64,000 nt of DNA, taken from assembly GCA_965207705.1 (NCBI GenBank), contig OZ242292.1, positions 1,545,309-1,609,308 on the forward strand, given 5' to 3'. The notes beneath the pieces are model-generated. The model searched no databases and had not been told where the DNA came from. It saw only the letters and a program-made list of their open reading frames with translations. Position 1 is the first letter of the stretch, and each line of letters starts with the position of its first letter. Origin of the DNA: Gammaproteobacteria bacterium. GTDB taxonomy: Bacteria; Pseudomonadota; Gammaproteobacteria; CBDBNL01; JAAOII01. The position numbers were made by a program, and so were the translations under genes. This document shows positions 1-61,582 of the stretch, piece by piece.

Positions 1-17
1 AAAGCACAGAAGAAGGG

Positions 18-1604
18 ATGGATACATCTTTCAAATATTCTGAAAAAACAAAAAAATATGAAACAGAAAAATCTAAAAGAAAAGAAATATTTTTTAATCA
101 AATTATAGCTTCAGATGAAATTGATCGTCTATTCGATGAAAAAGCATTAGTCAACTGGAAAAGGTACATTAAAAATAGTGAAGAAATAGGTGAAGAAACA
201 GTTAAAGAAATAAAGCGCGATGAGAACGGAACAATAAAAGAGAACTTAATAATTAAGGGCAATAATTTATTGGCACTTCATAGTATAAATAAACAATTTG
301 CAGACAAAGTAAAGCTCATTTATATAGATCCACCGTATAACACAGGAAAAGATGGGTTTAAGTATAATGATAAATTTAATCATTCTACTTGGCTAACTTT
401 TATGAAAAACAGGTTGGAAGTAGCAAGGAGGTTATTACGAGATAATGGAGTTATATTTATTTCGGTTGACGATAGAGAGTTTGCATATTTAAAAATACTG
501 TGTGATGAAATTTTTGGACGAGAAAATTTCTTGAATGATGTTATTTGGAATTCTACGAAGTCAGTCACTAATACAGCAATTATTTCGGTTTCACATACTC
601 ATAATTTAGTATATTTCAAAAATAAAGATTACTATATAAAAAATAGAACAGAATTTAGGCTGGTTGAGGATGGTGAAGGTTTTTTTAATCCAGATGATGA
701 TCCTAGGGGTGTTTGGAAAGCTGATCCATTTCAAGTAGGTGGGTGGCGGCCTAATCAACAATATGAAATAAAAAACCCGAATACGGGAATTATTTATACA
801 CCAAACAAAGGTTGTAGCTGGAAAAATGATTATAAAAAATTTCAGGAATTGGTGGCTGACAATAGAATAGTTTTCGGTGCTAGAGGCACTGCTAGTCCGC
901 AAAGGAAAAGATTTTTATTTGAATCGGAAAAAAGAGGAAAGGTTTCAAAAACTATATGGGATGATGCTGGTACAACTACAGATGGAACAAGGCATCTCAA
1001 GCAATTATTTAATGAAATAGTTTTTGATAATCCAAAACCAGAACAATTTATTGAAAAAATTATTGAATTGGCTACTAATGAATATGACATTGTCTTAGAC
1101 TATCATCTAGGAAGTGGTACAACCGCCTCTGTAGCACACAAAATGGGCAGGCAATATATTGGGATAGAGCAAATGGACTATATAAAAAACATTGCTTGTG
1201 AAAGATTAAAAAAGGTTCTAAATGGTGAGCAAGGGGGAATTTCAAAATCAGTGAATTGGCAAGGAGGCGGAGATTTTATTTACCTTGAACTAGCTAAATG
1301 GAACGAACAAGCAAAAGAGAAAATTAAAGCTTGCAAGAGTTTAAAAGAATTAGAGAAAGTTTTTAATTCTCTCTATGAAAAATATTTTCTTAATTATAAT
1401 CTAAAACTTCAAGAGTTTAAAGAAAAAATTATAAAAGAAGATAATTTTAATAAATTATCATTAGAGAAACAGAAGGAAATATTTTCAGAAATATTAGACC
1501 TTAACCAAATGTATGTTCAGAAAACGGAGATGGCTGATCAAAAATTTGAGATTAGCAAGGAGGATCAAGAATTAACTAAAAAATTTTATAATAGCGAAAA
1601 ATAG
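18..1604 (+). CDS. mod: Type III restriction-modification methyltransferase (Mod subunit), N6-adenine class. The ORF is open to the window start, so it may be 5'-truncated.
   Basis: DPPY motif (IYIDPPYNTGKDGFKYNDKF) and an FxGxG-like SAM motif (LDYHLGSGTTA) in beta-class order. It lies immediately upstream of a helicase-like Res gene. The region is AT-rich. Confidence 0.85.
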   Translation: MDTSFKYSEKTKKYETEKSKRKEIFFNQIIASDEIDRLFDEKALVNWKRYIKNSEEIGEETVKEIKRDENGTIKENLIIKGNNLLALHSINKQFADKVKLIYIDPPYNTGKDGFKYNDKFNHSTWLTFMKNRLEVARRLLRDNGVIFISVDDREFAYLKILCDEIFGRENFLNDVIWNSTKSVTNTAIISVSHTHNLVYFKNKDYYIKNRTEFRLVEDGEGFFNPDDDPRGVWKADPFQVGGWRPNQQYEIKNPNTGIIYTPNKGCSWKNDYKKFQELVADNRIVFGARGTASPQRKRFLFESEKRGKVSKTIWDDAGTTTDGTRHLKQLFNEIVFDNPKPEQFIEKIIELATNEYDIVLDYHLGSGTTASVAHKMGRQYIGIEQMDYIKNIACERLKKVLNGEQGGISKSVNWQGGGDFIYLELAKWNEQAKEKIKACKSLKELEKVFNSLYEKYFLNYNLKLQEFKEKIIKEDNFNKLSLEKQKEIFSEILDLNQMYVQKTEMADQKFEISKEDQELTKKFYNSEK

Positions 1605-1630
1605 AATATGTCAAACATCAGTGATTCATA

Positions 1631-4483
1631 ATGCCAGATATTAAATATTTATACGAGATAATTGAGGGTAAAGCACGCAAATTAAGGATTCTACAACCTG
1701 AAATACCAAAATATATTTTAGAGAATTTAAGACATGGTTTTTTTGAGTGGCAACAAGAAGCTTTTGATAATTTTTTACTTTATCAGGAGATAAAAAAAAT
1801 AGAGGATCCCAATTCCTACACTCATCTGATGTTTAATATGGCTACTGGATCTGGTAAGACCATGTTGATGGCAGCTGCTATTCTTTATTATTATGAACAA
1901 GGATATAGACACTTTTTATTTTTTGTGAATCAAAATAATATTTTAGATAAAACTATAAGTAACTTTATCAATAGCACCCACACTAAACATCTTTATACAA
2001 ATCCAATTTTTATTGATAACGCAACTATTTCAATCAAGGAAGTAGAGGTATTTAGTGATAATCCACAAGGTATAGAAATTAAATTTGCTACTATTCAACA
2101 ACTATATTACGATATACATACTGAACAAGAAAATAAGACAACTCTGGATACCCTACATAAAAAAGATATTATCATGCTTGCTGATGAAGCACATCATCTT
2201 AATGCTAACACAAAAAACATTACTATAATAGAAGATTTTTTTGACAAAGAGTTAAAAGGTTCTAAAGCAGAAAAAGAAAAAAAGGGCTGGGAACATACAG
2301 TTATAGAATTTATTCTAAAGAAGAGAAATCCCGGGGATGAAAGGCTCCCCACTCATAATAGGAATGTACTTTTGGAGTTTACTGCTACTATTCCCTCAGA
2401 TTCAGAAGTTATTAAGAAATATAGTGATAAAGTAATTTATAAATTTGAGTTAGTGGAGTTTCTAAAGAAAGGATTTACTAAAGAGATAAATCTGATATCT
2501 TCTACTTTAGATAAAAATGAAAGGATTCTACATGCATTATTATTTAATTGGTATCGGCATAAAATTGCACTTAAGCACGGAGTTATTAATTTTAAACCAG
2601 TAATACTTTTTAGAAGTAAAGAAATTAAAGATTCAAAAATAGATTACGAAGAATTTTTATGCTGGATAGATCGTCTTGAAGAGAAGAACTTTGATTTTCT
2701 TAATAATATTTCTGAAAGAATTATTGAAGATCGTTCAGCAGATTTTTCTAATATAGAAAAATCAGGAACTGAAAAAATTTTAGAATTTATTAGAGGTGAG
2801 AATAAAGGTTATAGTGAAGCAATAAAATGGCTAAAAAGTAATTTTATAGAGAGGAATGTAATTATCACCAATTCAGAAACAAATAAAAAGAAAACAGAAG
2901 TAATAACAGCGGAACAGGAAAAGCTTCTTAACAGTTTAGAGGATAAAGAAAATAATATTAGAGGGATCTTTACGGTTAATAGATTAACGGAAGGATGGGA
3001 TGTATTGAATCTTTTTGATATTGTTCGTCTTCATCAAGAAGAAAATTCTGGAGATAATGACACAGAATTTATTGCAGCAACAACTTCAGAGAAACAACTT
3101 ATAGGTAGAGGAGTAAGATATTTTCCTTTTACATATAATGATAAACCTGAAAGACAAAGAAAATTTGATGGTGAACTTGAACATGAACTGCGAATTTTAG
3201 AAGAGTTACACTATTATACTTATGATAAAAAATCACGGTATATTTCCCAGCTTAAAGAAGCACTAAGGAAAGAGGGCCATATGAGAGAAGATAAAGTTGT
3301 TAGAACTTACGAATTAAAGGAAGGTTTTAAAGAAAGCAAATTTTATATGAATACTAAACTTTTTTATAACAAAAAAATAGCTAATCCAAATAGAAAGAAT
3401 AAAAATTTGGACGATATTCCAAAGGATTTTTTTACCCCCTATAGAGTTAAGGATATAGAAATGGCTGAAGAGATAATGGATTATGATTTTCAAGAAAATT
3501 TACAAAAACTAAAATTAAAAGAAAAAGAGCTAATATCAATTAAAAAGAAATTCAAAGATATTGAAAAGCATATTTTTTTGAAGGCGGTAAACATAAAAGC
3601 TAAAGAAGAAAACTCTTTATTTCAGTTTGAAAAATTAAGTGAAGAATTGAATGTAAAAAGTATTGATGATTTGCAAACAAAGATATTAGCAGATTTTCAA
3701 ATAACGATTGTTGCTCCCCAAGGCACTAAATATGAAAACATTGAAGGGAAGGAAAAACTAAATATTGTGCTTATTATTTTACGGCAGATATTTGGAGAAC
3801 TTAAGAAACAAATTGCTCCTGAGATAGGTAGTGATTTTAGGATGAAGAATTTAAAAGATTTTTTCTCCAAACCTAAAAGTAAACTGATAGCAGAAAACAT
3901 AGAAACTAAAAATCTGGAAAATAAATTAAAGCACGCTGATTGGTATGCTTTAAATGCCTTTACTGGAACAAGTGAAGAAGCGAGCATGATTGAGTTTATA
4001 CAAGAAACTGTAGGCGATTTGAATAAGGAATGTGATGAATTCTATCTGTTAAGAAATGAAGAGGTTTATAAAATATATGACTTCAAGACTGCTAGAGGAT
4101 TTTGCCCTGATTTTATATTGTTTTTAAAAAGTAAAGATAAAGGAGAGTTTAAACATAATAAAACAATAACCCGTTCAGAAAAATATTATCAAATTTTTAT
4201 TGAACCTAAAGGTGAACAATTTATTGGTTATGATAATAGTATAGTGGGAGATAGTATTGATAAGAGAACATTCAAAACGGGTAAAGAAGGATGGAAAGAA
4301 GAATTCTTGGAAGAGATATCCAAAAGATATGGATTTAACGAGATTGTAGAAGCAGAGAATCCTAAATATAGATTAATAGGGTTACCTTTCTATAATACAG
4401 ACACAAAATTTAAAGCTATATTTGGAGAAAAATTTGAGGAGGTAGTTGAAGACCTTTCAACTTTTAATAACAGTCCTCAATAG
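1631..4483 (+). CDS. res: Type III restriction enzyme, Res subunit (SF2 helicase-like endonuclease)
   Basis: Walker A-like motif MATGSGKTMLMA and DEAH-like motif LADEAHH in a 950 aa protein, 27 bp downstream of mod in the same orientation. Confidence 0.85.
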   Translation: MPDIKYLYEIIEGKARKLRILQPEIPKYILENLRHGFFEWQQEAFDNFLLYQEIKKIEDPNSYTHLMFNMATGSGKTMLMAAAILYYYEQGYRHFLFFVNQNNILDKTISNFINSTHTKHLYTNPIFIDNATISIKEVEVFSDNPQGIEIKFATIQQLYYDIHTEQENKTTLDTLHKKDIIMLADEAHHLNANTKNITIIEDFFDKELKGSKAEKEKKGWEHTVIEFILKKRNPGDERLPTHNRNVLLEFTATIPSDSEVIKKYSDKVIYKFELVEFLKKGFTKEINLISSTLDKNERILHALLFNWYRHKIALKHGVINFKPVILFRSKEIKDSKIDYEEFLCWIDRLEEKNFDFLNNISERIIEDRSADFSNIEKSGTEKILEFIRGENKGYSEAIKWLKSNFIERNVIITNSETNKKKTEVITAEQEKLLNSLEDKENNIRGIFTVNRLTEGWDVLNLFDIVRLHQEENSGDNDTEFIAATTSEKQLIGRGVRYFPFTYNDKPERQRKFDGELEHELRILEELHYYTYDKKSRYISQLKEALRKEGHMREDKVVRTYELKEGFKESKFYMNTKLFYNKKIANPNRKNKNLDDIPKDFFTPYRVKDIEMAEEIMDYDFQENLQKLKLKEKELISIKKKFKDIEKHIFLKAVNIKAKEENSLFQFEKLSEELNVKSIDDLQTKILADFQITIVAPQGTKYENIEGKEKLNIVLIILRQIFGELKKQIAPEIGSDFRMKNLKDFFSKPKSKLIAENIETKNLENKLKHADWYALNAFTGTSEEASMIEFIQETVGDLNKECDEFYLLRNEEVYKIYDFKTARGFCPDFILFLKSKDKGEFKHNKTITRSEKYYQIFIEPKGEQFIGYDNSIVGDSIDKRTFKTGKEGWKEEFLEEISKRYGFNEIVEAENPKYRLIGLPFYNTDTKFKAIFGEKFEEVVEDLSTFNNSPQ

Positions 4484-4494
4484 AATACATTAGA

Positions 4495-5439
4495 TTATTT
4501 ATATTCTTGCCAATATTTAGGAAGCACTTTTTTGTATAAAATTATTTTGTTGTAAAGCCAGTCAAAGTATTCTTCATATTTAGACTGATCAAATACATCG
4601 GTAACTTCTTTGTATGTTTTTATATTAGAAGAATCATCGTTTAGTTCCCAATTAACTTCTTGGCCTATTTCTTTTTCAATTTTATCACGAATAGAATATA
4701 GGTATTTAAGGAAGTTTAATTTATCCTTAGAAAAATATAACACACACCCTAATCTTTTCTCTTTAAATAAAATCGTAGCGAACATTACACACCCAGAAAA
4801 ACCTATACCTGAGCTGCAAAAATGTTTTGGTATGGGTGTTGACACTTGAATTTTATCTCCATTTTCGTGAATATAATTTGTAAATTCTTGCCAAAAAAAC
4901 AATTGTTTTTCTTGAGTATTAGTTAATTCATTAGACGTATAACTAGAACTTTTAATTGTTTTTGCCCATTCATTAGGGCTTGCTACTATTTCAAATTTAG
5001 GTGCTGGAGGGCTATTCTCTATCCGGTAAACCTTTAACTTTACTAAGAAAAACCCTATTTCCTGATCTGTGTGTTCGTTTAGCCATTTAACAGCTTGTTG
5101 ATGTTCAGAGTTAAAACCCTTAACTATCCAAATAATAATTTTGGCATCATAGCCAGAAGCATAAGTGATTATCTGTCCAAGATGTCTATGATTTGTATTT
5201 TCAAGTTGATTTTCAATTATTATTTTCCTGTCCCCTATATTATCTTTTGCAAGTATATCTACATTATACTTTCCAACACTTGCTTCAGATTCTATAAGTT
5301 CTATATTTAACCCACCTATTTCTTCTCCTAAAATATCAAGGTTTTCTTGCTTTGCAAGCCATGGTGTAAAATTTATCGCCTCATTTGCCCACACCTCTCG
5401 CAAGTCAACTTCTTTTAATATTGATAGTTTTTCATTCAT
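4495..5439 (-). CDS. DUF4268-like protein with an N-terminal PD-(D/E)xK nuclease-like domain; RM/defence-island accessory.
   Basis: The N-terminus (LREVWANEAINFTPWL...VDILAKD...IIIENQLE...HLGQIITYASGYDAKIIIWI) matches my recollection of the DUF4268/NucS-like nuclease family. It is convergent with and adjacent to the type III RM genes. Confidence 0.6.
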   Translation of the reverse strand: MNEKLSILKEVDLREVWANEAINFTPWLAKQENLDILGEEIGGLNIELIESEASVGKYNVDILAKDNIGDRKIIIENQLENTNHRHLGQIITYASGYDAKIIIWIVKGFNSEHQQAVKWLNEHTDQEIGFFLVKLKVYRIENSPPAPKFEIVASPNEWAKTIKSSSYTSNELTNTQEKQLFFWQEFTNYIHENGDKIQVSTPIPKHFCSSGIGFSGCVMFATILFKEKRLGCVLYFSKDKLNFLKYLYSIRDKIEKEIGQEVNWELNDDSSNIKTYKEVTDVFDQSKYEEYFDWLYNKIILYKKVLPKYWQEYK

Positions 5440-5488
5440 TTTAATTAATCTATTGGTTAGGTCTAATTAGCGTTCCCCCTATCTCCCC

Positions 5489-5914
5489 CTAACTTCCGTA
5501 ACGGACTATCCAGTTTATGTCATATTTGTCGGTACATACGCCAAAGTAGGAACTCCAAAAAGAACCTTCTGGTTCCATCTTCATTTCTCCAAAGGGTCTT
5601 TTTATATTGCCGCCTTTTGCTAGGGCTTTGAATATTCTACTTGCTTCTTTTTCGCTATCTGGTTGAATAGTTATGGAGAAGTTATTGGCAGCGGTAACTG
5701 GATGACCCATTGCATCGCTACCCATTAAAACACCATCGCCGATTGGCAGTGATATATGTAGAATTTGATTTAGGGCTTCCTTTGGCATTTTGTCTGAGCC
5801 AGGCATATCTTTAAATCTTTGTAGTTCACTAAAGTTTCCACCAAAGATTGATTTGTAGTACTTGAATGCTTCTTCGGTATTGCCGTTGAAGTTAATATAA
5901 GATTGAATTTTCAT
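5489..5914 (-). CDS. VOC-superfamily protein, PhnB/YjdN-like (3-demethylubiquinone-9 3-methyltransferase-like domain)
   Basis: The N-terminus MKIQSYINFNGNTEEAFKYYKSIFGG is typical of the PhnB-like family, and the size (141 aa) fits. Confidence 0.65.
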   Translation of the reverse strand: MKIQSYINFNGNTEEAFKYYKSIFGGNFSELQRFKDMPGSDKMPKEALNQILHISLPIGDGVLMGSDAMGHPVTAANNFSITIQPDSEKEASRIFKALAKGGNIKRPFGEMKMEPEGSFWSSYFGVCTDKYDINWIVRYGS

Positions 5915-6048
5915 AATAGTATATTATACTAATTATTTCCTTACTTAACGCTTAACATTTTTGTCCGTTTTGCAGACGAGTTCAGGCACTCGTATATGCC
6001 TTTCAGCTATACCCCCTTACCTATACCCCTTATGCTATAATTTTTATT

Positions 6049-6462
6049 ATGAAATTAACTTTGAAAATGGATATGGTGGGAATCATCACAAGCAATTTTG
6101 CTGAGATGAAAGCATTCTATCATGATGTTGTTGGTCTTGAGATTATCTTTGAGATGGAGGGTAATTATGTGGAGTTTAAAATGCCAGGTACACGTTTTGG
6201 TATTTCCACTAATAAAGTCATGGCTGAGTTTACCCGCCATCCCAGCTACAATGAGCTAAAGAAGGGACAGACGTTTGAATTAGCTTTTATTCTTGATACT
6301 CCAGCGCAAGTTGACGAGACATATAAAGAAATACTTGCTAAAGGAGCTAAAGAGGTAGCACAACCAGCTGATATGCCATGGGGACATAGAACAGCTTTTT
6401 TTGCCGACCCAGACGGCAATATTCACGAGCTATTTGCTAGTTTGCCAGAAGAGAATAAGTAA
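6049..6462 (+). CDS. Glyoxalase/bleomycin-resistance (VOC) family protein
   Basis: 137 aa with a VOC-like beta-alpha-beta-beta-beta pattern (GIITSNFAEMKAFYHDVVGLEI ... ADPDGNIHELF). Confidence 0.6.
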   Translation: MKLTLKMDMVGIITSNFAEMKAFYHDVVGLEIIFEMEGNYVEFKMPGTRFGISTNKVMAEFTRHPSYNELKKGQTFELAFILDTPAQVDETYKEILAKGAKEVAQPADMPWGHRTAFFADPDGNIHELFASLPEENK

Positions 6463-6478: not shown

Positions 6479-6490
6479 TGGGGGGGGGGG
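6479..6490. repeat. Homopolymeric G tract (about 12 G) in an intergenic region
   Basis: Sequence ...gttatgggggggggggggtatg... between the convergent VOC and Fic/Doc genes. Confidence 0.7.
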
Positions 6491-6536
6491 TATGAAAAAT
6501 ATAACCCCTATAATTTTTTAGAAAGGTCAGCTTTTT

Positions 6537-7115
6537 TTACAATAATAAAGCGCGAATATATGCACTTTTTAGCATATAAACGATTAACCCTATAATTTTA
6601 TCTTTATCTTTAGGTTTGCTTTCTGCGACGGTAAGCGTAATATCGGTCATTGATTGAGATGTTATGCTGGTAATCTCAACACCAGCTTTTTGTAAGAACC
6701 ATATAAAAGCAAAAGTCCCACATCTTTTATTGCCATCTATAAATGGGTGATCTTTCACTATAAAATATAGGAGATGTGCCGCTTTTTCGTTAATGGTCGG
6801 ATAAACATCTTCACCACCTGCTGATTGAAATATACTGCCGACAATCCCTTCTATCCCTTCATTATTTTTGCTTTTGCCAAAAAGCTCTGTCCCTTGTTTT
6901 TTGGCTATGAGATTTTGCTTGAATTCTTCTAAACTCTGGGTTAATTCTTCAGCAGTGAATACAATTTTTTCATTAGGTGTTTTATTGCCTTGAACAATAA
7001 TCTTGTAAATATCTTTTGCTGCTTTATCATAAGCCTCAAGTGCGATCCATGTGTCATAAAATGCATCTGTAATTTGGCTAATATTTAGTTTTTTGTCAGT
7101 TGATTTTTTAACCAT
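6537..7115 (-). CDS. Fic/Doc family protein (Doc-type motif) with an ~90 aa N-terminal extension
   Basis: HPFIDGNKRCG matches the Doc-type variant (HxFx(D/N)GNKR) of the Fic motif. No Phd-like antitoxin ORF is adjacent. Confidence 0.65.
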   Translation of the reverse strand: MVKKSTDKKLNISQITDAFYDTWIALEAYDKAAKDIYKIIVQGNKTPNEKIVFTAEELTQSLEEFKQNLIAKKQGTELFGKSKNNEGIEGIVGSIFQSAGGEDVYPTINEKAAHLLYFIVKDHPFIDGNKRCGTFAFIWFLQKAGVEITSITSQSMTDITLTVAESKPKDKDKIIGLIVYMLKSAYIRALLL

Positions 7116-7179
7116 AATAGTCAGTGAGTTTATGCTGGTTGTAGTACATGGTTTTATTATACTTTATGTGTTAAAAATA

Positions 7180-7290
7180 GTTGCGAGCATGGTTATGGTT
7201 TGTCTCGAGTGTTAGGCATCTTGCGGACGGAGCGCAGCTCCGCCCCTACAGACCTGCGTCGCAAGAATTCATACACCATACGGACGCCAA
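7180..7290 (-). repeat. REP-like composite palindromic element (copy 1, reverse orientation)
   Basis: Contains GCGGACGGAGCGCAGCTCCGCCCCTACAGACCTGCGTCGCAAGAATT and GCGAGCATGGTTATGG, which are reverse complements of the unit seen at 32301, 35275, 43520 and 58374. Confidence 0.8.
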
Positions 7291-7291
7291 G

Positions 7292-8506
7292 TTATATTGC
7301 GTTGGGGATGATTTTGGCGTCGTCGTAGTTTTGGGATAGGCGACTGCGGCAGAATTCTATCATTTCATCATGGGCTGCCTTTTGCATCTGTAGGGCGGAG
7401 TCGGTAGTTATCATTTTATTTACTAAAAAGGGTGCGGTTGGGTAGTGGCGCGACATTGTTGCTGCCATGCTGCGCGGAAATCTTAGAGTGCCAAGGGTTA
7501 TGGAATGCATTGCTTTGTTGGGGACTGCGGCGGCAAGTTGCTCTATTAGTTCGCTGTAGGAATCTTGCCATTTGTCATGCCATATCAATGGGTCTAAACG
7601 CGCTCCAATCTTCCAGTCGCGTTGCGCCAGTTTTTTCATTGCGAGTAATCTTTTGCTTGGAGTTGGTGTGCCTTTTTCATATTGGCGTGCCACTGCATCT
7701 GGCGCCATGCTAAAAGCCACGATGCAATTGGGAATAGCTGTTTGCTGTAATAGAGTTTTGACTTGCAAGCTTTTGGTGCGTAGTTCTAACCAAGCATTTG
7801 GGTGTTTGGCAAAGAAGGGTAGCGCCTCAGCGACAAACTTACTGGTTGGCTCGTAGGCAAGAGAATCACAATCATAGCCAGAGAAGAAAAAGCACTCTTC
7901 ACTTTTTGCCTTTTCTTGTTCGGCTCCTTTTCCATTCGTCCCGCTTTCATTTGCCTCCTTTCCATTTCCTCCATTTTCTTGCCGTGTCTTATTCTTAATA
8001 ACCCTTTTTTCTCCTCCCTTGGACTGTTGCACTTGTTGCACCTGTTTTTCTATTGCCGTGAAGAAGTCCTCGTAGTTGATAAAAATTACATAGTGCGCCG
8101 ATGAATACATTGCTTGTAAAAAGCAATAGCTGCAATCATACATGCAGTTCAGCATGTGTGAGAAGTAAAAATTATGCTTGCCACCTATACCATAAGGGCT
8201 GTGTTGCACCCAATCTTTTTCTTTGCGGGCAATTATCAGGGCGGGATGATTTTTTTGCAGGCGGAAATTATTACGTTTTGGATTGAATATTTCTCGGTAG
8301 TTATCGCACTCAATAACGCAAGGGTTGTTAAATCTTTTGATGATGGCTGCGGCGCGTGGATGATGGCGCACTGATTTTTCGAGGTATATGGTTTGGCGGG
8401 CGGGCATGGACGGGGGTATGGACGCGGGCATAGGCATATCCTCATGCTCATGTTTATTCTCACGCGACTTAATTTCCAGCTCCTCACTCACTTGCTTTGC
8501 ACCCAT
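7292..8506 (-). CDS. Spore-photoproduct-lyase (SplB)-like radical SAM protein, carrying an internal low-complexity insertion.
   Basis: CMYDCSYCFLQAMYSS fits the Cx3Cx2C radical-SAM cluster in an SplB-like context (compare SplB CMGHCHYCYLQT). The N-terminal IYLE...RF region is SplB-like. There is a G/N/K/E-rich insertion of about 45 aa. The true start may be downstream of 8506. Confidence 0.7.
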   Translation of the reverse strand: MGAKQVSEELEIKSRENKHEHEDMPMPASIPPSMPARQTIYLEKSVRHHPRAAAIIKRFNNPCVIECDNYREIFNPKRNNFRLQKNHPALIIARKEKDWVQHSPYGIGGKHNFYFSHMLNCMYDCSYCFLQAMYSSAHYVIFINYEDFFTAIEKQVQQVQQSKGGEKRVIKNKTRQENGGNGKEANESGTNGKGAEQEKAKSEECFFFSGYDCDSLAYEPTSKFVAEALPFFAKHPNAWLELRTKSLQVKTLLQQTAIPNCIVAFSMAPDAVARQYEKGTPTPSKRLLAMKKLAQRDWKIGARLDPLIWHDKWQDSYSELIEQLAAAVPNKAMHSITLGTLRFPRSMAATMSRHYPTAPFLVNKMITTDSALQMQKAAHDEMIEFCRSRLSQNYDDAKIIPNAI

Positions 8507-8516
8507 TTATTTTGAC

Positions 8517-8591
8517 CCATCTGCTTTTCATCCATCTGCTTTTCATCCATCTGCTTTTCATCCATTTACTTTTCATCCATTTACTTTTTGT
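8517..8591. repeat. 15-bp tandem repeat x5 (CCATCTGCTTTTCAT x3, CCATTTACTTTTCAT x2)
   Basis: Direct reading. The array spans the stop codon of the nucleosidase-like gene and lies immediately upstream of the radical-SAM start. Confidence 0.9.
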
Positions 8592-12352: not shown

Positions 12353-14414
12353 TTTATCACTTGCTCATCCAATAAGGATGTTGGCGGCAGATGCGGTCCA
12401 ACGTGCCTCATCGGGACATCCTGGCATGCCAATGGGCATGGCTGATATCGCCACAGTTTTATGGCGTGAGTTTCTGGCGCATAATCCCACCGACCCTAAC
12501 TGGCATAACCGCGACAGGTTCATTCTTTCCAACGGGCATGGTTCAATGCTGCAATATGCTTTACTTCATCTTAGTGGTTATGACCTCAGTATGGAAGAGA
12601 TTAAAAACTTTCGCCAGATGAATTCACAAACTCCTGGCCATCCCGAATTAGAAACAGTAGGGGTGGAAACCACCACAGGTCCTTTAGGGCATGGTTTGGC
12701 AAACGCGGTTGGCATGGCTCTTGCCGAACGTAATCTTGCTGCAGAGTTCAATCTCCCAGAACTTAATATAGTATCCCACTTCACTTATGTATTTGCCGGC
12801 GATGGTTGTCTTATGGAAGGTCTATCCCATGAGGCGTGCTCTTTGGCAGGGACTCAACGGCTCAACAAGCTAATTTGCTTTTTTGATGATAACGGAATTT
12901 CCATAGACGGCGAGGTTAGTGGCTGGTGTAGTGATGATGTGGCAAAAAGATTTGATGCTTATAACTGGAATGTCCTGGGTCCCATAGACGGACATGACCA
13001 TGAGCAAATTAGGAAGGCAATTACCTCTGCTCAACAAAGTGATAAGCCATCATTAATTATCTGTAAGACGCATATAGGTTATGGTTCGCCGAATAAAGCG
13101 GACAAGGCGGCAGCGCATGGTGCGCCCTTAGGCGACGAAGAAATAGCTCTTATGCGTAGTAACCTTGATTGGCAGCACGAGCCATTTGTGATAACGGATG
13201 AAATATATCAGGCATGGAATATGCGCGACAAGGGCAAAAAGGCGCAGCAACAATGGGAAGATTTGTATGCCAAGTATAGTTCCGCTCACCCCACTAAAGC
13301 GAAAGAATATACAAGAAGATTAAGCGGGCAAATGCCGCATGATTTTACTAACAAGGCGCAGGACTTTATTATTAGCCAGCATAAATCAGCTGCCTCAGTG
13401 GCTAGCCGTCAGTCGTCCTTACAAGCCATTAATAACTTGCTCCCTTCATTGCCTGAGTTGCTCGGCGGTTCGGCAGATCTTAGCGGCTCCAACTGCACGC
13501 TCAGTGATTCATCTGTTGCTATAAGTGATAATGGCAAACCCGGCAACTATATCTATTATGGAGTGCGTGAGTTAGCGATGAGCTCAATAATGAATGGTAT
13601 TGCCTTACATGGCGGATATATTCCTTATGGCGGCACCTTTTTAGTATTTTTAGATTACTCGCGTAGCGCGGTGCGTTTGGCGGCTTTGATGCGCCAGAAG
13701 GTCATTTTTATTTTTAGCCATGATTCAATCGGCGTGGGCGAGGATGGACCTACCCATCAACCAATAGAACATCTAACAATGCTACGTGCCACTCCAGGAA
13801 TTGATGTGTGGCGTCCAGCGGATACTGTTGAGTGCGCGGTTGCTTGGACAGAATCCCTGCAAAAATCATCTCCCAGTACTTTAATACTATCGCGTCAGAA
13901 TCTTGAATTTCAGTCGCGTGATGAATCACAACTTGAAGATATTGCTAAAGGCGGCTATGTTTTAGTTGCCGGGGGGAATAATCAGGAGGGGAATAATCAA
14001 GGAGGCAACAATAAGGGCTACAATCAAGGCAACAATAATGATGAGCCAGCAGCCATAGTTATTGCCACTGGTTCCGAATTAGGCGCAGCCCGTCAGGCAG
14101 TGGAACAACATAATAAAGAGGACCTAACAAAAGGAGGCAACAAGCAAGTAAGGTTGGTATCCATGCCTTGTTGTGAAGTATTTGATGCCCAGTCGCCTGA
14201 ATATCGCGATAAGGTTTTACCGCCAAAGATTGTCAAACGTTTGGCAATAGAAGCGGCAATGCCAGATTACTGGCATCGTTACATTGGGTTGCAAGGCGAG
14301 ATTATAGGGATTAACTCCTTTGGTAAATCAGCGCCTGCTAGTGAATTATTTGAGCATTTCGGGCTCACCGCCAAACATATCTACAACAAGATTACTGCGT
14401 TTATTCACCAATAG
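12339..14414 (+). CDS. tkt: Transketolase with in-frame N/G/Q-rich insertions
   Basis: Full-length collinearity with TktA (SGHPGMPMGMADIA, GDGCLMEG, HDSIGVGEDGPTHQP), plus an inserted GGNNQEGNNQGGNNKGYNQGNNNDE segment. Confidence 0.9.
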   Translation: MKKSDLSLAHPIRMLAADAVQRASSGHPGMPMGMADIATVLWREFLAHNPTDPNWHNRDRFILSNGHGSMLQYALLHLSGYDLSMEEIKNFRQMNSQTPGHPELETVGVETTTGPLGHGLANAVGMALAERNLAAEFNLPELNIVSHFTYVFAGDGCLMEGLSHEACSLAGTQRLNKLICFFDDNGISIDGEVSGWCSDDVAKRFDAYNWNVLGPIDGHDHEQIRKAITSAQQSDKPSLIICKTHIGYGSPNKADKAAAHGAPLGDEEIALMRSNLDWQHEPFVITDEIYQAWNMRDKGKKAQQQWEDLYAKYSSAHPTKAKEYTRRLSGQMPHDFTNKAQDFIISQHKSAASVASRQSSLQAINNLLPSLPELLGGSADLSGSNCTLSDSSVAISDNGKPGNYIYYGVRELAMSSIMNGIALHGGYIPYGGTFLVFLDYSRSAVRLAALMRQKVIFIFSHDSIGVGEDGPTHQPIEHLTMLRATPGIDVWRPADTVECAVAWTESLQKSSPSTLILSRQNLEFQSRDESQLEDIAKGGYVLVAGGNNQEGNNQGGNNKGYNQGNNNDEPAAIVIATGSELGAARQAVEQHNKEDLTKGGNKQVRLVSMPCCEVFDAQSPEYRDKVLPPKIVKRLAIEAAMPDYWHRYIGLQGEIIGINSFGKSAPASELFEHFGLTAKHIYNKITAFIHQ

Positions 14415-14415: not shown

Positions 14416-14510
14416 GAGAAGCACATATAAGGGGGGTAATAATATAAGGGGGGTAATAATAGAAGAGGGGATAATAATAGAAGAGGGGATAATAAAGCCA
14501 TCCCCCCTCC
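14416..14510. repeat. Intergenic tandem repeats (ATAAGGGGGGTAATAAT x2; AGAAGAGGGGATAATAAT x2)
   Basis: Direct reading between the convergent tkt and trmB genes. Ends with a GGGG...CCCCCC inverted segment. Confidence 0.85.
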
Positions 14511-29991: not shown

Positions 29992-30750
29992 CTATTGTTC
30001 AACTATTATGTCGGTTCCTGGTGGAGGGACAAGATTAAATTGCGAGCGTGTATTGCGCCAATTCTTTTTAATATTATCAAACTTCATCACAATTTTTTGG
30101 TTAAGTTCGGTATCCCAGTTAATCTCACGCGGTATATTGTTTCTAAAATAAACTGATATTCCTTGCGAGTATTGAGCGTCACTTAAAAAGAATATAGGAG
30201 CATTTGTATCTGGCTGGCTTATATCCATAGCATCTAAAACAGCTTTATTTCCTCCAAGGAAAAAGAAAGGTGGCAGGTTATTTTTATCAAGCGGACGGAT
30301 AATTAACTGCCTAAGTTCTTCATCATAAATCAAGATATTGGTGCTATTGCTTATTATGGTCTGAGCAAAAGGTGGGTCAACTTCCCATCTTAATAGCAAA
30401 GGGCGAGTCATCCTAAACTTTCCGCTTAGGATGCGTAAAGTGTTACCATTGGAATCATATTCATGCTGGGTAAAATCACCGCGCAGGGATTTTATTGAAG
30501 ATAAAATATCTTCAAGATTATTCCTTGCCTGATTATCCGCCGCGAGCGCCAAGGGGGGAATAACAAGGAGGGGAATAACAAGGGGGGGAATAACCAGGGG
30601 GGTAATAAAGAGAGAGAAAATAACGAGCGAGGAAAGAACGGAGAAAACAAAACCGAAAACCACTAACAGGGTTTCAGTCGCTTTATGAATAGCGCATTTG
30701 GCTCGTTGCGTTCCCTCCGCCCATAAGGAGGCGAGTTGACTATCCAGCAT
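29992..30750 (-). CDS. LolA-like outer-membrane lipoprotein carrier protein with an unusually long, internally repeated hydrophobic N-terminus
   Basis: LRGDFTQ..., LRWEVDPP... and LIIRPLD resemble the LolA fold. The N-terminus contains ITPLVIPPLVIPLLVIPPLALA before an AXA site. Confidence 0.5.
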   Translation of the reverse strand: MLDSQLASLWAEGTQRAKCAIHKATETLLVVFGFVFSVLSSLVIFSLFITPLVIPPLVIPLLVIPPLALAADNQARNNLEDILSSIKSLRGDFTQHEYDSNGNTLRILSGKFRMTRPLLLRWEVDPPFAQTIISNSTNILIYDEELRQLIIRPLDKNNLPPFFFLGGNKAVLDAMDISQPDTNAPIFFLSDAQYSQGISVYFRNNIPREINWDTELNQKIVMKFDNIKKNWRNTRSQFNLVPPPGTDIIVEQ

Positions 30751-32277: not shown

Positions 32278-32300
32278 TTGAATAATATAACACAACATAA

Positions 32301-32578
32301 GGTATCTTGTATAAATTCTTGCGACACAATTCTGTATGGTGTTTGACATTACGATACCCATCTGGTATGCTGTATAAATTCTTGCGATGATGGTCTGTAG
32401 GGGCGGAGCTGCGCTCCGCCCGCCAGATGCTTGATACTTGCGATAAACCTTCGGCATGCTCGCGTCGTACATATCTATGGTCTATGACATTACGACGCAG
32501 GTCTGTAGGGGCGGAGCTGCGCTCCGCCCGCAAGATGCTTGATACTTGCGATAAACCTTCGGAATGCTCGCGTCGCAA
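32301..32578 (+). repeat. REP-like composite palindromic elements (tandem dimer, two GGGGCGGAGCTGCGCTCCGCCC cores)
   Basis: Direct reading. Two units, each with CTTGCGA(C/T)G...GTCTGTAGGGGCGGAGCTGCGCTCCGCCCGC.AGATGCTTGATACTTGCGATAAACCTTCGG.ATGCTCGCGTCG. Confidence 0.85.
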
Positions 32579-32622
32579 TATAATTTATTTGATATTCTAC
32601 TTTTTCAAGTAAAATACTAATT

Positions 32623-32962: not shown

Positions 32963-35272
32963 GTGCAGTCAGTAGAAATAGTATTCCCGCTGCCATTAAA
33001 TAGAAGCTTTACTTATCTGCTATCGCCAGATGTTACTTACGGCAGTCATCTACTTGGTGCCAGAGTTATAGCTCCATTTGGTCCGCGCACTCTCTCTGGT
33101 TTTATCAGCGGTCCAGGCAAGCCACAAGAAACGCAAGAAGCACAACAAACGCTTAGTAAGAGTAAAAAACAGGATAGAAAAAGAATAACCCTAAAAGAAA
33201 TAAAACAATTAGTTGACCAGCCAACTTTATTCCCCCCTAGGCTATACAAGACCCTTTGCTGGGCTGCAGAATACTATTGCGAACCGCTCGGCCAGGTATT
33301 AGATACTGCCATTCCTTCTGCGTTACGCAGCGGCAAAGATGCGGAGCCACTTTTTATTACTAAATGGCATTTAACCGATAAAGGTAAGGATGTTGACATA
33401 GAAAGCATCACAGGCAGCAATCAACGCAAGGTATTACAACTACTGGGAGTTGGACAAAAATTGGAGCAAAACCAAGAACATGGAGAATCTCCCGCCTCAA
33501 CTAAAAAGCAAGAACAAGAGAGTAATACTGAAATCAGTAGCAGCGCCCTAAATGCGATGCGCATATCGGCAAGCGTTTTACAGGCGCTAAAAAAGAAGGA
33601 GCTAATCGCAGGAAGGAAAGTCCTCAAACTCCCACCACGCAAGTTTACTGGGATACCTTATGTTCACCCGCAACTAACGGATGAACAACAACAAGCAGTT
33701 GACAAGGTTACTGCAAGCTTTGGCAAATATAACTGTTTTTTATTGGAGGGAGTAACCAATAGCGGTAAGACAGAAGTATATATTGAAATAATCCGCCGCG
33801 CTTTAGCCCGTGGCGAGCAGGCATTATATTTAGTGCCTGAAATAGGCCTGTCACCGCAGACCTTACAGCGGCTGGAAAAATCTCTTGCTATTCCTTTAGG
33901 TGTAATCCATTCTTCGCTTAGTCCTGGCGCAAGAATGCAAAATTATTTACTGGTGGCGCGCCACCAAATTAGCGTGCTTATAGGCACTCGTTCTGCAGCG
34001 TTTGCCCCCCTCGCCAAACCTGGATGTATCATTGTGGATGAAGAGCACGACTCATCCTATAAGCAACATAGCGGCTTTCGCTATAACGGCAAACACTTTT
34101 TAATTAAGCTTGCTTCCGAATATAATATACCCATTGTCTTGGGCAGTGCCACTCCAGCGCTTGAGTCCTTCTACAATGCGCGACAAGGTAAATATCAGCA
34201 TCTTCGTCTCAAACAAAAATTTGCCAGTGCTGGAAAAATCAGTGCCCAATTAATTGAAATGAAAGGGCGTTACCAGCCAAATAATTTGCCGCATGAAGCG
34301 TTGACCGCTATCAAACAAACTCTGGCAGATAACTCACAGGTTTTGGTGTTCATTAATAGACGCGGCTTCGCCCCGCAGCTACAGTGCTCGGCTTGTAATT
34401 GGATGCAAGTATGTTCTTCTTGCGACCGACCGATGACTTTGCATAAGTATCCGCCACTTTTGGCTTGCCACCTGTGCGAAACCCAAAAACCTATACCTCA
34501 CAAATGTCCAAACTGCGATAGCTTACAAATAACTCCTATAGGGTTGGGCACCCAAAGCATTGAGAGCATACTGGCAAAAGAATTTCCTAAGGCGCAGATT
34601 CTCCGCATAGACAGAGATAGCATGAGCAAAAAGGAGTCCTTTCAAGATTTTTATCGCAAGGTGCAATCAGACGAACCAGCTATTTTAGTGGGAACTCAGA
34701 TGCTTGCCAAAGGTCATGATTTTGCTAATGTTGCTCTTGCTATCATAGTCAATTGTGATAGCGGCTTGCTCAGCAATGACTTTCATAATGTTGAGCAGGT
34801 TGCTCAGCTGATTACTCAGGTAATTGGCAGAGTGGGACGGCGTAACAGCGGACGTATTATTATCCCAACCTATTATCCAGAACATCCTGTGCTGCAAACC
34901 CTGATAAGGCGCAGCTATGCGGACTTTGCCAAACTGGAACTTGACAATCGCAACAAATTTGCATTACCTCCTTATCATTTCCTTGCTTACCTAAGAGCCG
35001 AAGCACTTAAGCCCGAAGATGCTCAAGAATTTCTTGGCAAGCTTAAAGATTTAGCATTAGATGAAGCCCGCCAAAACAAGGCGCAATTGTTGGGACCTAT
35101 TGAATCAAGCATAGCTAAAAGATTAAATTTTTATCGCTTCGTTGTTTTAATTAAGAGCGAAAGCAGACAAGCATTACATAAAGTGGCGCGCCTTATGAGC
35201 GAGCAGGCGCAACAGCACAACAAATCAAATATCGCTTGGCACTTAGACATTGACCCCATTGACCCACCTTAG
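32963..35272 (+). CDS. priA: Primosomal protein N' (replication restart helicase), with a GTG start
   Basis: N-terminal VEIVFPLPL winged-helix region, Walker A GVTNSGKTEVY, DEEHD, and a Cys-rich zinc-binding region (CSACNW...CSSCD...CHLC...CPNCD). Confidence 0.9.
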   Translation: MQSVEIVFPLPLNRSFTYLLSPDVTYGSHLLGARVIAPFGPRTLSGFISGPGKPQETQEAQQTLSKSKKQDRKRITLKEIKQLVDQPTLFPPRLYKTLCWAAEYYCEPLGQVLDTAIPSALRSGKDAEPLFITKWHLTDKGKDVDIESITGSNQRKVLQLLGVGQKLEQNQEHGESPASTKKQEQESNTEISSSALNAMRISASVLQALKKKELIAGRKVLKLPPRKFTGIPYVHPQLTDEQQQAVDKVTASFGKYNCFLLEGVTNSGKTEVYIEIIRRALARGEQALYLVPEIGLSPQTLQRLEKSLAIPLGVIHSSLSPGARMQNYLLVARHQISVLIGTRSAAFAPLAKPGCIIVDEEHDSSYKQHSGFRYNGKHFLIKLASEYNIPIVLGSATPALESFYNARQGKYQHLRLKQKFASAGKISAQLIEMKGRYQPNNLPHEALTAIKQTLADNSQVLVFINRRGFAPQLQCSACNWMQVCSSCDRPMTLHKYPPLLACHLCETQKPIPHKCPNCDSLQITPIGLGTQSIESILAKEFPKAQILRIDRDSMSKKESFQDFYRKVQSDEPAILVGTQMLAKGHDFANVALAIIVNCDSGLLSNDFHNVEQVAQLITQVIGRVGRRNSGRIIIPTYYPEHPVLQTLIRRSYADFAKLELDNRNKFALPPYHFLAYLRAEALKPEDAQEFLGKLKDLALDEARQNKAQLLGPIESSIAKRLNFYRFVVLIKSESRQALHKVARLMSEQAQQHNKSNIAWHLDIDPIDPP

Positions 35273-35274
35273 CT

Positions 35275-35581
35275 ATGATGTATAAATCCTTGCAATACAA
35301 TTCTGTATGGTGCATAAATCCTTGCAACGTAGATCTGTATGGCGTTCAAACCTACGACGCAGGTCTGTAGGGGCGGAGCTGCGCTCCGCCCGCAAAATGT
35401 CTAATTCTTGCGACGTACCATCGGCATGCTCGCGACGTACATAATCATGCTGCATAAATTATTGCGACGCAATTCTGTATGGTGCATAAATTCTCGCAAC
35501 GCAGGTCTGTAGGGGCGGAGCCATGCTCCGCCCGCAAGATGTCTAATACTTGCAACACACCATCGGCATGCTCGCGACACC
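35275..35581 (+). repeat. REP-like composite elements (cluster with two palindromic cores, one variant having a CCAT centre)
   Basis: GTCTGTAGGGGCGGAGCTGCGCTCCGCCCGC at about 35364 and GTCTGTAGGGGCGGAGCCATGCTCCGCCCGC at about 35505, each flanked by CTGTATGGTGCATAAAT.CTTGC units. Confidence 0.85.
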
Positions 35582-35670
35582 ACACAAAATAACCGTTAGG
35601 GATTTCTGCATAAAAGCGTGTAATTATTCAACTATATATAGTATAATGTTGCTTAGCACAGTAAAAAATT

Positions 35671-39709: not shown

Positions 39710-40882
39710 ATGAAAGATATATCCGCCATAATTAAAAAAGTAGTCCCGCCAGAAATTCAACAAGCAAATGCTTATGTGCCAGTTCAAGCGGACAAGTCAG
39801 CGGCGCGTCTTGATGCCATGGAGAATGCTTATGGCTTTCAAGACCTGAGTCCCACTTTATTTGACCTGTGGCTTGAACGATTAAAGAACATTGAAGTCAA
39901 TCGCTATCCGCTTAGCTGGACGGATGAACTGCAAACTCGTTTGAAAGAGGAGTTTGCAATCCCTTCATCTGCCTCCTCGTCTGTATCTCCCTCTATATCC
40001 CCTTCTATATCCCCTTCTATATCCCCTTCTATATCCCCTTCTATATCATTGATGCCAGGCAATGGTTCAGATGAACTCATCCTCTTGCTTATTCTACTCT
40101 GCGGAGGGAGTAAGGCACGGGTGCTAAGCCCTTCCCCCAGCTTTAGCATGTATTCCCATTTAACTAATGTGCTTGGTGGCAAATTCATAGAGGTGGACTT
40201 ACAAGAGGATTTTTCATTAAACTTGGACTCTTTTAGTGCGGCAATTAAAGACAATGACCCCGCACTAATTTTTATTGCACAGCCAAATAATCCAACAGGT
40301 AATTTATTTGCGCCGCAAGCGATTGAAATTGCGTTGGCTAAAAGCAATGGTTTGGTTGTGGTTGACCGCGCCTATGATTTTTTCTGTAGTGGGGGCAATC
40401 TGCCGTCGCCAGATATAACCCAGCATCCTAATATGGTTGAGCTGCGCACTCTATCAAAGATTGGCATGGCAGGGCTAAGGTTTGGTTTTGCAGCGGCTCA
40501 TCCTGAGGTTATAGACCAGCTAAATAAGTTACGACTGCCTTACAACATTAATTCCTTAACCTTACAAAGCATATTATTTGCCATGGACAATATTCAATAT
40601 TTCTTGCAATGGGCTGCTGAAACGGTTGCTCAACGTGATGATTTGTATCATAAGATGGAGGAAATTAGCGCAATAGAAACCTACCCCAGCGAAACAAACT
40701 TCTTATTGTTTCGCAGCAACACGCTTGATGCCGCCACCATTAGCGAAAAACTAAAAGACAACAAAGTGCTTATAAAGAATCTTGATAAGTACCATCCTTT
40801 ATTACGTAATTGTTTACGTGTGTCCATCGGTAGCCCGCAAGATAACGAATTATTTCTTAATCAGCTTAAACGACTGTTTTAA
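39710..40882 (+). CDS. hisC: Histidinol-phosphate aminotransferase containing an in-frame (SPSIS)x5 repeat
   Basis: Class-II aminotransferase fold, with the PLP lysine context LRTLSKIGMAGLRFG. A 15-bp x5 tandem repeat encodes SPSISPSISPSISPSISPSIS. Confidence 0.85.
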   Translation: MKDISAIIKKVVPPEIQQANAYVPVQADKSAARLDAMENAYGFQDLSPTLFDLWLERLKNIEVNRYPLSWTDELQTRLKEEFAIPSSASSSVSPSISPSISPSISPSISPSISLMPGNGSDELILLLILLCGGSKARVLSPSPSFSMYSHLTNVLGGKFIEVDLQEDFSLNLDSFSAAIKDNDPALIFIAQPNNPTGNLFAPQAIEIALAKSNGLVVVDRAYDFFCSGGNLPSPDITQHPNMVELRTLSKIGMAGLRFGFAAAHPEVIDQLNKLRLPYNINSLTLQSILFAMDNIQYFLQWAAETVAQRDDLYHKMEEISAIETYPSETNFLLFRSNTLDAATISEKLKDNKVLIKNLDKYHPLLRNCLRVSIGSPQDNELFLNQLKRLF

Positions 40883-43500: not shown

Positions 43501-43519
43501 ACGGCACATAAATAAAAAT

Positions 43520-43616
43520 TGCCACGAATTAACAACGCAGGTCTGTAGGGGCAGAGCCATGCTCTGCCCGCAATATGCTCAAAACTTGCGACGCACTATC
43601 GGCATGCTTGCAACGC
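43520..43616 (+). repeat. REP-like element (single unit, CCAT-centre variant)
   Basis: AACGCAGGTCTGTAGGGGCAGAGCCATGCTCTGCCCGCAATATGCTCAAAACTTGCGACGCACTATCGGCATGCTTGCAACG. Confidence 0.8.
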
Positions 43617-43692
43617 TAACATAACGGTATAATTCCTACACCAAACAACATTAAATTTAAGTTAGTTATTCTATCCTGTAAAATAACTAATA

Positions 43693-58373: not shown

Positions 58374-58475
58374 CCACACTCCGCCCGCAAGATGCCTAAT
58401 ACTTGCGATAAATCATAACCATGCTCGCGATGAAATCCTGCATGACGTCCAAATTCTTGCCCCGCTCGCAAGCTA
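58374..58475 (+). repeat. REP-like element (truncated unit with one half of the palindrome)
   Basis: CTCCGCCCGCAAGATGCCTAATACTTGCGATAAATCATAACCATGCTCGCGATG... directly after the FN3 lipoprotein stop codon. Confidence 0.75.
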
Positions 58476-58606
58476 CTCACCCCATAAACAAAACTAAGGT
58501 AATTTACCCCTTGAATTAATAATAAAAGCCCTTATAAAGAATATTAACAATAAGAATTACTGTGTTAAGGAAAAGCGCTTATATATTTAATAAAGTAGAT
58601 AATGTA

Positions 58607-60016: not shown

Positions 60017-60082
60017 TTATTTTTATGTCTTATTAACATTTATTATAAAATATAGAAGATATTATTAACTACGAGGTATATT

Positions 60083-60652
60083 ATGAAAATAGAGGATAGA
60101 GTTAAATTTATTTGTTTTTTACTTGACGCACTAAAAAGTAAAAATGGTTGGGCGGGGATGATTCATTTACAAAAAGGATGCTATATTGCACAGCGCATGT
60201 TAAGTATTCCTTTAGATTATAAATTTATACAGTATATTTACGGTCCTTATGCTTTTGACTTAGAAGAGGAGATACGTATAACAAATAGGAGACTTATACT
60301 GAGCAAGGGCTTACCTCCAGTTGGCTATGGATGTGCTTATGATTTCTATGAGGATATAGAAAAATATGTTGAAGAAAATAAGAATAATTACAAGTTCAAA
60401 GATGAAATTAATTTTATTGCCGGCTGGTTTTTAGATAAGAAAATAGGCAGGTTGGAAAAGCTGGCAGCGGCTTATATGATAAATGAGATATATCCTGATG
60501 CTGAACGAGAAGAAAGAATAAAAAAACTGATTGGATGGAAACCATTTATGACTGAGCCTGAAGCGCTTAGCTGTTTTGAGGATGTTGAGGAAAGAAATAA
60601 AGAAGTAGAAGAACTGGAGTTTATTAATAAAAAAATTAGCGTCTCAGGATAG
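60083..60652 (+). CDS. Panacea (DUF4065)-like small protein, paralog 1
   Basis: MIHLQKGCYIAQ...PLDYKFIQYIYGPYAFDLEEEI fits my recollection of the Panacea/SocA consensus (LQKLLYYAQ ... AWKYGPVVPEVY). 189 aa. Shares the RBS GAGGTATATTATG with paralog 2. Confidence 0.55.
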   Translation: MKIEDRVKFICFLLDALKSKNGWAGMIHLQKGCYIAQRMLSIPLDYKFIQYIYGPYAFDLEEEIRITNRRLILSKGLPPVGYGCAYDFYEDIEKYVEENKNNYKFKDEINFIAGWFLDKKIGRLEKLAAAYMINEIYPDAEREERIKKLIGWKPFMTEPEALSCFEDVEERNKEVEELEFINKKISVSG

Positions 60653-60743
60653 GCGCGCATACACCAAAGAATGATAGAAATTATTTCTATATTTTATTAA
60701 TATTTAATATAGAATATATAAGTTATTATTAAAGAGGTATATT

Positions 60744-61313: not shown

Positions 61314-61394
61314 GCGCGCATAAACAAACAACATAGTTTCCGTGAGGCAGGGCAACTTTTCCGCCCACACCATGCTCGCCTTATATTAGTTTGG

Positions 61395-61530
61395 CATTAT
61401 CTCCACCCATTGCTAACCTCCCCCTAACTACCGTAGCGGATTATCCAGTTTATGTCGCACTTATCGGTTCATACACCTATGGAATTCATGAAAAAAGATT
61501 TTGAGTCCCAAGTGATATGGGGCCATACAG
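61395..61530 (-). pseudogene. Frameshifted 3' remnant of a PhnB/VOC-like gene (paralog of 5489..5914)
   Basis: The sequence ACCGATAAGTGCGACATAAACTGGATAATCCGCTACGGTAGTTAGGGGGAGG matches the last codons (TDKYDINWIVRYGS*) and downstream CCCCCTAAC of the gene at 5489-5540. The upstream frame is broken. Confidence 0.5.
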
Positions 61531-61582
61531 CTATGAAAAATTATGAGAAATTGTGTTATAATTCCCACACATAAAACCTAAA

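Follow-up and report, generated by a model that had tools for sequence, protein, structure and literature searches.

The 3′ end of a PhnB-like gene occurs twice in the 64,000-nucleotide stretch of gammaproteobacterial DNA analysed here (hereafter the window; contig OZ242292.1), and the second of the two copies is probably a scrap of that gene which, as judged by sequence comparisons with the corresponding loci of at least five relatives, would have become a passenger in a module assembled between PhnB and ftsB and afterwards copied elsewhere. The evidence comes from empty and occupied alleles of the sites concerned, from a junction that joins PhnB codons to the terminus of an insertion sequence (IS), and from the recurrence of that junction at unrelated loci.

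Two copies of a PhnB 3′ end at the edges of AT-rich islands

A repeat search returned 5483-5563 and 61418-61498 as a two-copy direct repeat (family D19; 77% identical without gaps). True homology is confined to 5483-5541 and 61418-61477, that is, to about 60 nt with nine differences (~85% identity), and it bears out the relationship between the two segments that had been claimed in a preliminary description of this DNA. The homologous block comprises the last 17 PhnB codons, the stop codon (5489-5491 in copy 1 and 61424-61426 in copy 2) and 6 nt (CTCCCC) past the stop. Likeness past 61477 was dismissed as chance, the stretch there deriving from a putative IS481-family element, and an apparent extension of copy 2 at the protein level (SFFMNSIGV versus SFWSSYFGV) was likewise rejected, its bases being the antisense of the transposase 3′ end.

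A degenerate pattern for the 39-nt core matched only two places in the window and none of 100 shuffles. The preliminary description had considered that such a motif might be ubiquitous in the genome; within the window there are just the two copies. Pattern scans with the PhnB 3′ sequence drew a blank among both the GTDB representative genomes and the JGI metagenomes, and Rfam had no match near either repeat site. Each copy forms the right edge of an AT-rich block, and the GC profile (28-31% at 1-5000 and 30-31% at 59000-61000, versus ~43% elsewhere in the window) agrees with the preliminary description in placing both copies next to AT-rich islands.

The PhnB-ftsB spacer is a defence hotspot

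Between PhnB and ftsB lies a defence hotspot, flanked by core genes and without an integrase. In the window it holds AT-rich island 1 (1-5478, as outlined by Pfam, PADLOC and GC content), which consists of a type III methylase gene that the start of the window truncates on its 5′ side (18-1604), a type III restriction subunit gene (1631-4483) and a DUF4268 gene (PADLOC PDC-S11; 4495-5439, minus strand). Five alleles of the locus were recovered, two of which (L003 and L007) are empty, with a 150-300-nt spacer full of REP-like repeats; the homology of the window to these empty alleles ends at 5479. Besides the type III restriction-modification and DUF4268 genes of the window, the occupied alleles hold either a type III restriction-modification system with a 231-aa gene (L001) or a 189-aa gene with genes for a TrlF-family ATPase, a T5orf172 protein and a methylase (L002), and PADLOC models match cargo genes of this locus. 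The junctions of L001 and the window lie 4 to 11 nt past the PhnB stop and that of L002 ~100 nt further, and beside ftsB the L002 allele breaks between GTTTATG and CATTAAG. No integrase or recombinase was present in the Pfam lists for the islands of the window (from position 1 on), L001, L002, L004-L006, L018 and L019, and the L001 island, which is equivalent to that of the window, reaches ftsB without an integrase. Comparison with strains that lack island 1, a course the preliminary description had advised, yielded the two empty alleles, and its idea of a hotspot stands: defence islands do sit beside PhnB, with cargos that vary by strain. For the core defence hotspots (cDHS) of Pseudomonas aeruginosa, turnover has been proposed to proceed by homologous recombination in the flanks (PMC10250203). 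On the other side of the PhnB-like gene, a Fic/DOC gene (PADLOC PDC-S23) and the REP next to it (6484-7291) are polymorphic for presence and absence; in L002 and L007, which lack this stretch, the glyoxalase and SPL genes are direct neighbours.

In L002 a 189-aa gene lies next to an intact PhnB. Window positions 60699-61477 are collinear with L002 3590-2814 (779 bp, 85% identity), and the L002 stretch has the same order, with the 189-aa gene first, then the spacer and then PhnB. The window and L002 189-aa proteins are 74% identical.

The same region could be read as a recombination core at the motif TGTTGTTTGTTTATG, ~110 nt downstream of PhnB, at which cassettes headed by a 189-aa gene were exchanged by some recombinase, the second PhnB fragment being simply neighbouring DNA. 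The 6.8-kb L002 cargo does lie between TGTTGTTAGTTTATG and TGTTGTTCGTTTATG, and the cargo of HD and 189-aa genes at the second site lies between GTTGTTTGTTTATG and GTTTTGTTTATG; the CGCGCC-189-aa-gene end opens both cargos alike, a single copy of the motif is present in the empty L003 and L007 alleles, and the motif shows no dispersal across the window. However, this reading draws on two cargo types only, the repeats are short, with 10-15 nt in common, and match imperfectly, a recombinase is missing, and the type III restriction-modification islands of L001 and the window use another junction. We consider it rather unlikely as an account of the repeat pair, and it is compatible with a passenger origin of copy 2, not exclusive of it. 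Direct repeats of the form TGTTGTT[A/C/T]GTTTATG were observed at L002 2951-2969 and 9729-9749, at window 61319-61333 and 58484-58498, and at L007 10500-10514, the pair around the HD and 189-aa cargo being looser than the pair around the L002 cargo; the TGTTGTT.GTTTATG repeat may be a cassette exchange point at that distance from PhnB.

The PhnB-like gene and its relic

Copy 1 of the repeat (5483-5541, minus strand), in which the 6 nt past the stop are native 3′ flank, belongs to a PhnB-like/VOC gene (5489-5914, minus strand; 141 aa) that is intact, as the preliminary description had it, with a full-length PF06983 domain (E = 8e-11; 42.9 bits versus a Pfam cutoff of 24). Its 12 orthologues, at 91-99% identity, come from related ENA/NCBI assemblies, and homologues outside this set are at most ~53% identical, the few named ones being from Bacteroidota or Kapabacteria; by protein scan, the sole GTDB member of the clade is OZ242303.1, a 1.86-Mb MAG. 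Exact look-ups of the window proteins PhnB, DctP and P0001 gave no match, and the relatives were traced by way of cluster members. The PhnB-like gene and the adjacent glyoxalase gene (5489-6462) have a low GC content (~36%), which, together with closest outside homologues that are only ~50% identical, suggests an older horizontal gain of the PhnB/glyoxalase genes that became fixed in the clade.

Copy 2 is a relic of this gene (61424-61477, minus strand), comprising the stop codon and 17 codons with one nonsense change (TGC to TGA). It had been described as a frameshifted stub, but it is in frame, reading GV*TDKCDINWIIRYGS* versus GVCTDKYDINWIVRYGS* in copy 1. The relic ends at about codon 125, ~17 codons ahead of the stop, and with this length and its internal stop it is no member of PF06983. 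Further DNA derived from PhnB-ftsB adjoins it (61319-61423, minus strand), namely the TGTTGTTTGTTTATG motif at 61319-61333, a short REP at 61340-61379 and 44 nt of the native spacer downstream of PhnB at 61380-61423; positions 61358-61477 are 87.5% identical over 120 nt to the empty L007 site (10490-10373). The relic of a second occupied allele, L006, is so close to the PhnB alleles found in L001 and L003, with 4 differences in 54 nt, that it can be traced to the PhnB of the clade itself; the window relic differs from the same two alleles at 5 of 54 nt and from the L007 allele at ~7. On these allelic comparisons, the relic is a dead piece of the PhnB-like gene that the clade itself possesses.

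Between the relic and copy 1 of the window, the differences fall mostly at third codon positions, which would also fit an old paralogue, that is, a second full-length PhnB that decayed in place between the 189-aa gene and dctP, with the likeness of the two island edges a coincidence; this is very improbable, since the differences are allelic and leave the relic close to the L001 and L003 PhnB alleles, the relic keeps the native PhnB-ftsB spacer, an identical truncation junction recurs at three or more loci, and empty FN3-dctP sites exist.

Anatomy of the module and its IS end

The module that carries the relic is ~3.15 kb long (58372-61529) and is composed, from left to right, of REP units, the HD gene, one or two 189-aa genes, the PhnB spacer, the relic and the right end of an IS. 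Its left end (58372-58503, plus strand; dispersed family D3), which is common to all module copies, has REP-like units followed by CCCCATAAACAAAACTAAGG. The REP units at module left ends all start with TGTAGGGGCGGAGG, and 58458-58503 is 87% identical to the empty L007 PhnB-ftsB spacer. The left boundary is blurred by REP repeats found genome-wide. These REP-like units form a dispersed, intergenic family with the core GGTCTGTAGGGGCGGAGC..GCTCCGCCCGCAAGATGC..CATGCTCGCG; in the window they lie at 7180-7284 (minus strand), 32295-32579, 35266-35583, 43496-43619, 58372-58457 and 61340-61385, and they fill the empty PhnB-ftsB spacers (L003 10498-10640 and L007 10524-10580). Analysis of DNA folding in the REP units revealed nothing notable, with z-scores of -1.5 to +0.9.

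The right end of the module consists of the terminal 59 nt of a putative IS481-family element (61471-61529, plus strand), up to its exact right terminus ...GGGGCCATACA, as matched by eye to the full-length IS of L006. Over the last 27 nt the agreement with the L006 IS is free of mismatches, and a BLAST alignment of 61471-61563 to L006 (86%) runs past the IS into its non-IS flank. The L006 IS is 1.2 kb long and was found as a single full-length copy (n = 1); its best family match is IS481, at 191 bits and below the curated cutoff of 224. Its limits, set by the IS-free L005 allele, are a left repeat TGCGTAGCC... and a right end ...GGCCATACA, with imperfect terminal repeats of ~28 nt and a 5-bp target duplication, CCTCT. 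This full-length element adjoins a REP unit.

In the module, the relic and the IS end overlap by 7 nt of microhomology, ATACACC, within the junction GGTTCATACACCTATGGAATTC. Read from the sequence of this junction, the overlap is the signature of a microhomology deletion, by which PhnB codons 1 to ~124 and most of the IS would have been lost. A search for a left IS inverted repeat gave nothing in any of the module copies, even with up to 9 mismatches in 28 nt allowed, and no target-site duplication is visible at FN3-dctP (site 2) when its empty and occupied alleles are compared. Given the lack of both a left repeat and a target duplication, standard two-ended transposition is excluded for the module.

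Module copies at unrelated intergenic sites

The FN3-dctP site is empty in L016 (= OZ242303.1) and L017, where the sequence reads TAG-CCACACAATAGTCCTCG.TTCTATAG-AGGTTATGAAAAAT... and contains nothing PhnB-like; these two alleles supply the comparison with strains lacking island 2 that the preliminary description had recommended. The occupied alleles share the HD gene but differ otherwise in content: the window and L006 have two 189-aa genes plus the relic, L004 has a single 189-aa gene plus the relic, and L005 has a single 189-aa gene without relic or IS end. The insert of L005 has 26 nt of native sequence at both sides. An interpretation of its relic-free junction as an ancestral, clean insertion was rejected on two counts, the relic being present in all dispersed copies and the native 26 nt at both sides, and we read L005 as derived, the product of recombination, at the microhomology CCACAC, with an empty allele.

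A single assembly, ERZ25069759, carries the HD and 189-aa genes at FN3-dctP (L006), at ctaB-aroB (L018) and at lipB-rpmF (L019), so that the module occupies three or more unrelated intergenic sites. Each of these copies has the same spacer, relic, PhnB/IS junction and terminus (...CCATACA), with unrelated flanks, and the ctaB-aroB and lipB-rpmF sites are far from any PhnB gene. To the right of the ctaB-aroB module, ~110 nt from its end, lies a tRNA-Ser (cga) gene (L018 10899-10988). At lipB-rpmF the HD gene (L019 9012-9793) has internal deletions and survives as two ORFs, of 101 and 145 aa; its occurrence beside an intact 189-aa gene suggests toxin-first decay.

It is a property of islands that target tRNA or tmRNA genes that they duplicate the 3′ end of the target gene, and the copy of a gene 3′ end at the border of island 2 is reminiscent of them. 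The preliminary description had accordingly suggested a shared attachment site. That both islands integrated site-specifically at the PhnB 3′ end and duplicated it would explain a ~60-nt sequence at the edge of two AT-rich defence blocks, and the PhnB flank is truly an insertion hotspot, but the idea is scarcely credible in view of islands that lack an integrase, a PhnB 3′ sequence that stands at one edge per island instead of both, PhnB-side junctions that vary by up to ~100 nt between islands, empty L016 and L017 sites free of PhnB-like sequence, and the same relic inside module copies at two more unrelated loci. Unlike the tRNA and tmRNA islands, moreover, the duplicate and the intact gene belong here to different islands, and site 2 never held PhnB. 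The further suggestion that the islands carry part of their target was half right: island 2 does carry a piece of PhnB, but the piece is probably of its birthplace, not of its target.

Beyond the module, the native upstream region of dctP (61530-61642, plus strand) contains a TGTGTTATAAT -10-like box and a G-rich tandem repeat of ~16 nt (TRF), and is present in the empty L016 and L017 alleles. Here AAAGTGGGGAAAACACA is repeated 3.8 times before dctP, in a copy number that varies by strain. G/A-rich tandem repeats of 12-18 nt stand right upstream of genes at 61580-61641, 8493-8588, 13973-14038, 14425-14495, 30553-30644 and 39980-40047; they may represent multiple Shine-Dalgarno-like units or an expression-tuning device.

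The HD enzyme and the 189-aa protein

The first gene of the module (58562-60016, plus strand) encodes an HD-domain phosphohydrolase (Pfam HD and HD_assoc_2) with weak similarity to dGTPases in PADLOC and NCBIfam, and a search with the protein gave generic HD proteins as the only matches. It is followed by two tandem cassettes with a period of 661 nt (60035-61328, plus strand; repeat families D2 and D16), and each cassette contains a 189-aa gene whose product resembles the C-terminal domain of DarG (60083-60652 and 60744-61313, plus strand). The cassette is doubled in the window and L006 and single in L004, L005, L018 and L019. As the two 189-aa proteins of the window are only 77% identical, either the duplication is old or copies have been exchanged between loci.

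The resemblance to DarG is found in both profile and fold. A profile of the 189-aa family matched PDB 7yk3_B with E = 8.6e-6 (hmmsearch), and an AF2 model from a deeper alignment (pLDDT 94.8, versus 52 from a shallow one) had 7yk3_B as its top Foldseek hit (TM 0.63, probability 1.00); DarG matches in PADLOC and NCBIfam fell below the cutoffs of those collections. The protein has no match in Pfam and none in plasmids. Its family comprises 17 clusters with 84 member sequences, all from clade assemblies in ENA/NCBI, and 686 representatives in a library of 1.84 billion proteins. The preliminary description had labelled island 2 with Panacea, a label that was not confirmed: the Panacea/SocA antitoxin profile PF13274 had no match, up to E 10, to the two window proteins or their close relatives P0275 and P0276, and its values for two remote relatives, 0.022 and 0.25, were sub-threshold. 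As far as sequence and model permit, it is plausible that the HD enzyme and the 189-aa protein form a toxin-antitoxin-like or defence pair.

A proposed origin at the hotspot and escape from it

We propose that the module arose and moved in the following steps. The PhnB-ftsB spacer, with its strain-variable content and freedom from integrases, would have served as the site of assembly, and the 189-aa cargo would once have lain there beside an intact PhnB, as it does in L002; alternatively, the 189-aa gene of L002 could have reached it through recombination with one of the module copies. Judging by the junction, an element of the IS481 family appears to have sat 5′ of PhnB, and a deletion at the 7-nt microhomology (GGTGTAT in the sense of PhnB) would have fused PhnB at about codon 125 to the last 59 nt of the IS. 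Assembly at site 1 is indicated by the spacer and PhnB codons, which are native there and absent from the empty site 2. Since all copies share the PhnB/IS junction, the block would have been mobilised after the deletion and would have had no transposase of its own.

The block was then copied to other intergenic sites, its right edge being always the exact IS terminus and its left edge lying in REP. Most probably an IS481 transposase supplied in trans cut at the right end, the only one still present, and the junction on the left came about in an irregular way. The direction of transfer, from PhnB-ftsB to the other loci, we infer from the spacer and PhnB codons that empty PhnB-ftsB alleles contain and empty FN3-dctP alleles lack. 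Local changes came afterwards: the 189-aa cassette was duplicated in tandem, one strain lost the relic, and in one copy the HD gene decayed. By this account the two copies in the window are alike because island 2 was born beside PhnB, not because PhnB was its target.

If so, the gene scrap would serve as a provenance tag for a cassette put together at a hotspot free of integrases, from which it escaped to multiply elsewhere, and it would link core defence hotspots with IS-driven gene mobilisation, two subjects usually treated apart. There is also a practical consequence, in that empty alleles should be checked before a repeated gene 3′ end at an island border is called an attachment site.

Relation to known systems

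Non-autonomous IS derivatives such as mobile insertion cassettes and transporter IS carry passenger genes, and ISEcp1 mobilises adjacent DNA in a one-ended manner. To our knowledge there are no reports of one-ended or passenger mobilisation for the IS481 family. The module is like these elements in carrying passengers without a transposase, in having one exact IS terminus, in its multiple copies and in the presence of a full-length IS in the clade. It differs from them in that a single IS end, the right repeat, is found in all copies, whereas a left repeat and a target duplication are absent and the left end lies in REP. The possibility that the block of HD and 189-aa genes is a new kind of non-autonomous mobile cassette, built at a hotspot and moved by IS481 in trans acting on a single end with REP at the other, and that its HD/DarG-C-like pair is an undescribed toxin-antitoxin or anti-phage system, is a tentative and rather unlikely one.

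As a candidate two-gene system, the HD enzyme and the DarG-C-terminal-like protein are best compared with DarTG. The 189-aa protein is akin to the C-terminal toxin-binding domain of DarG (7YK3) in profile and fold, and it is encoded beside a putative enzyme partner. Unlike DarTG, it has no macrodomain, DarT is absent, and the partner is an HD phosphohydrolase.

The PhnB-ftsB locus itself resembles the core defence hotspots described in P. aeruginosa (cDHS; PMC10250203) and E. coli (PMC10121019), with which it shares conserved flanking genes, interchangeable defence cargos of low GC content, empty alleles and the lack of an integrase. In contrast to those hotspots, a piece of the hotspot together with a fragment of a flanking gene has here probably escaped and multiplied elsewhere. 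The arrangement seen in this clade is related to two known kinds of system, IS-derived cargo elements and core defence hotspots.
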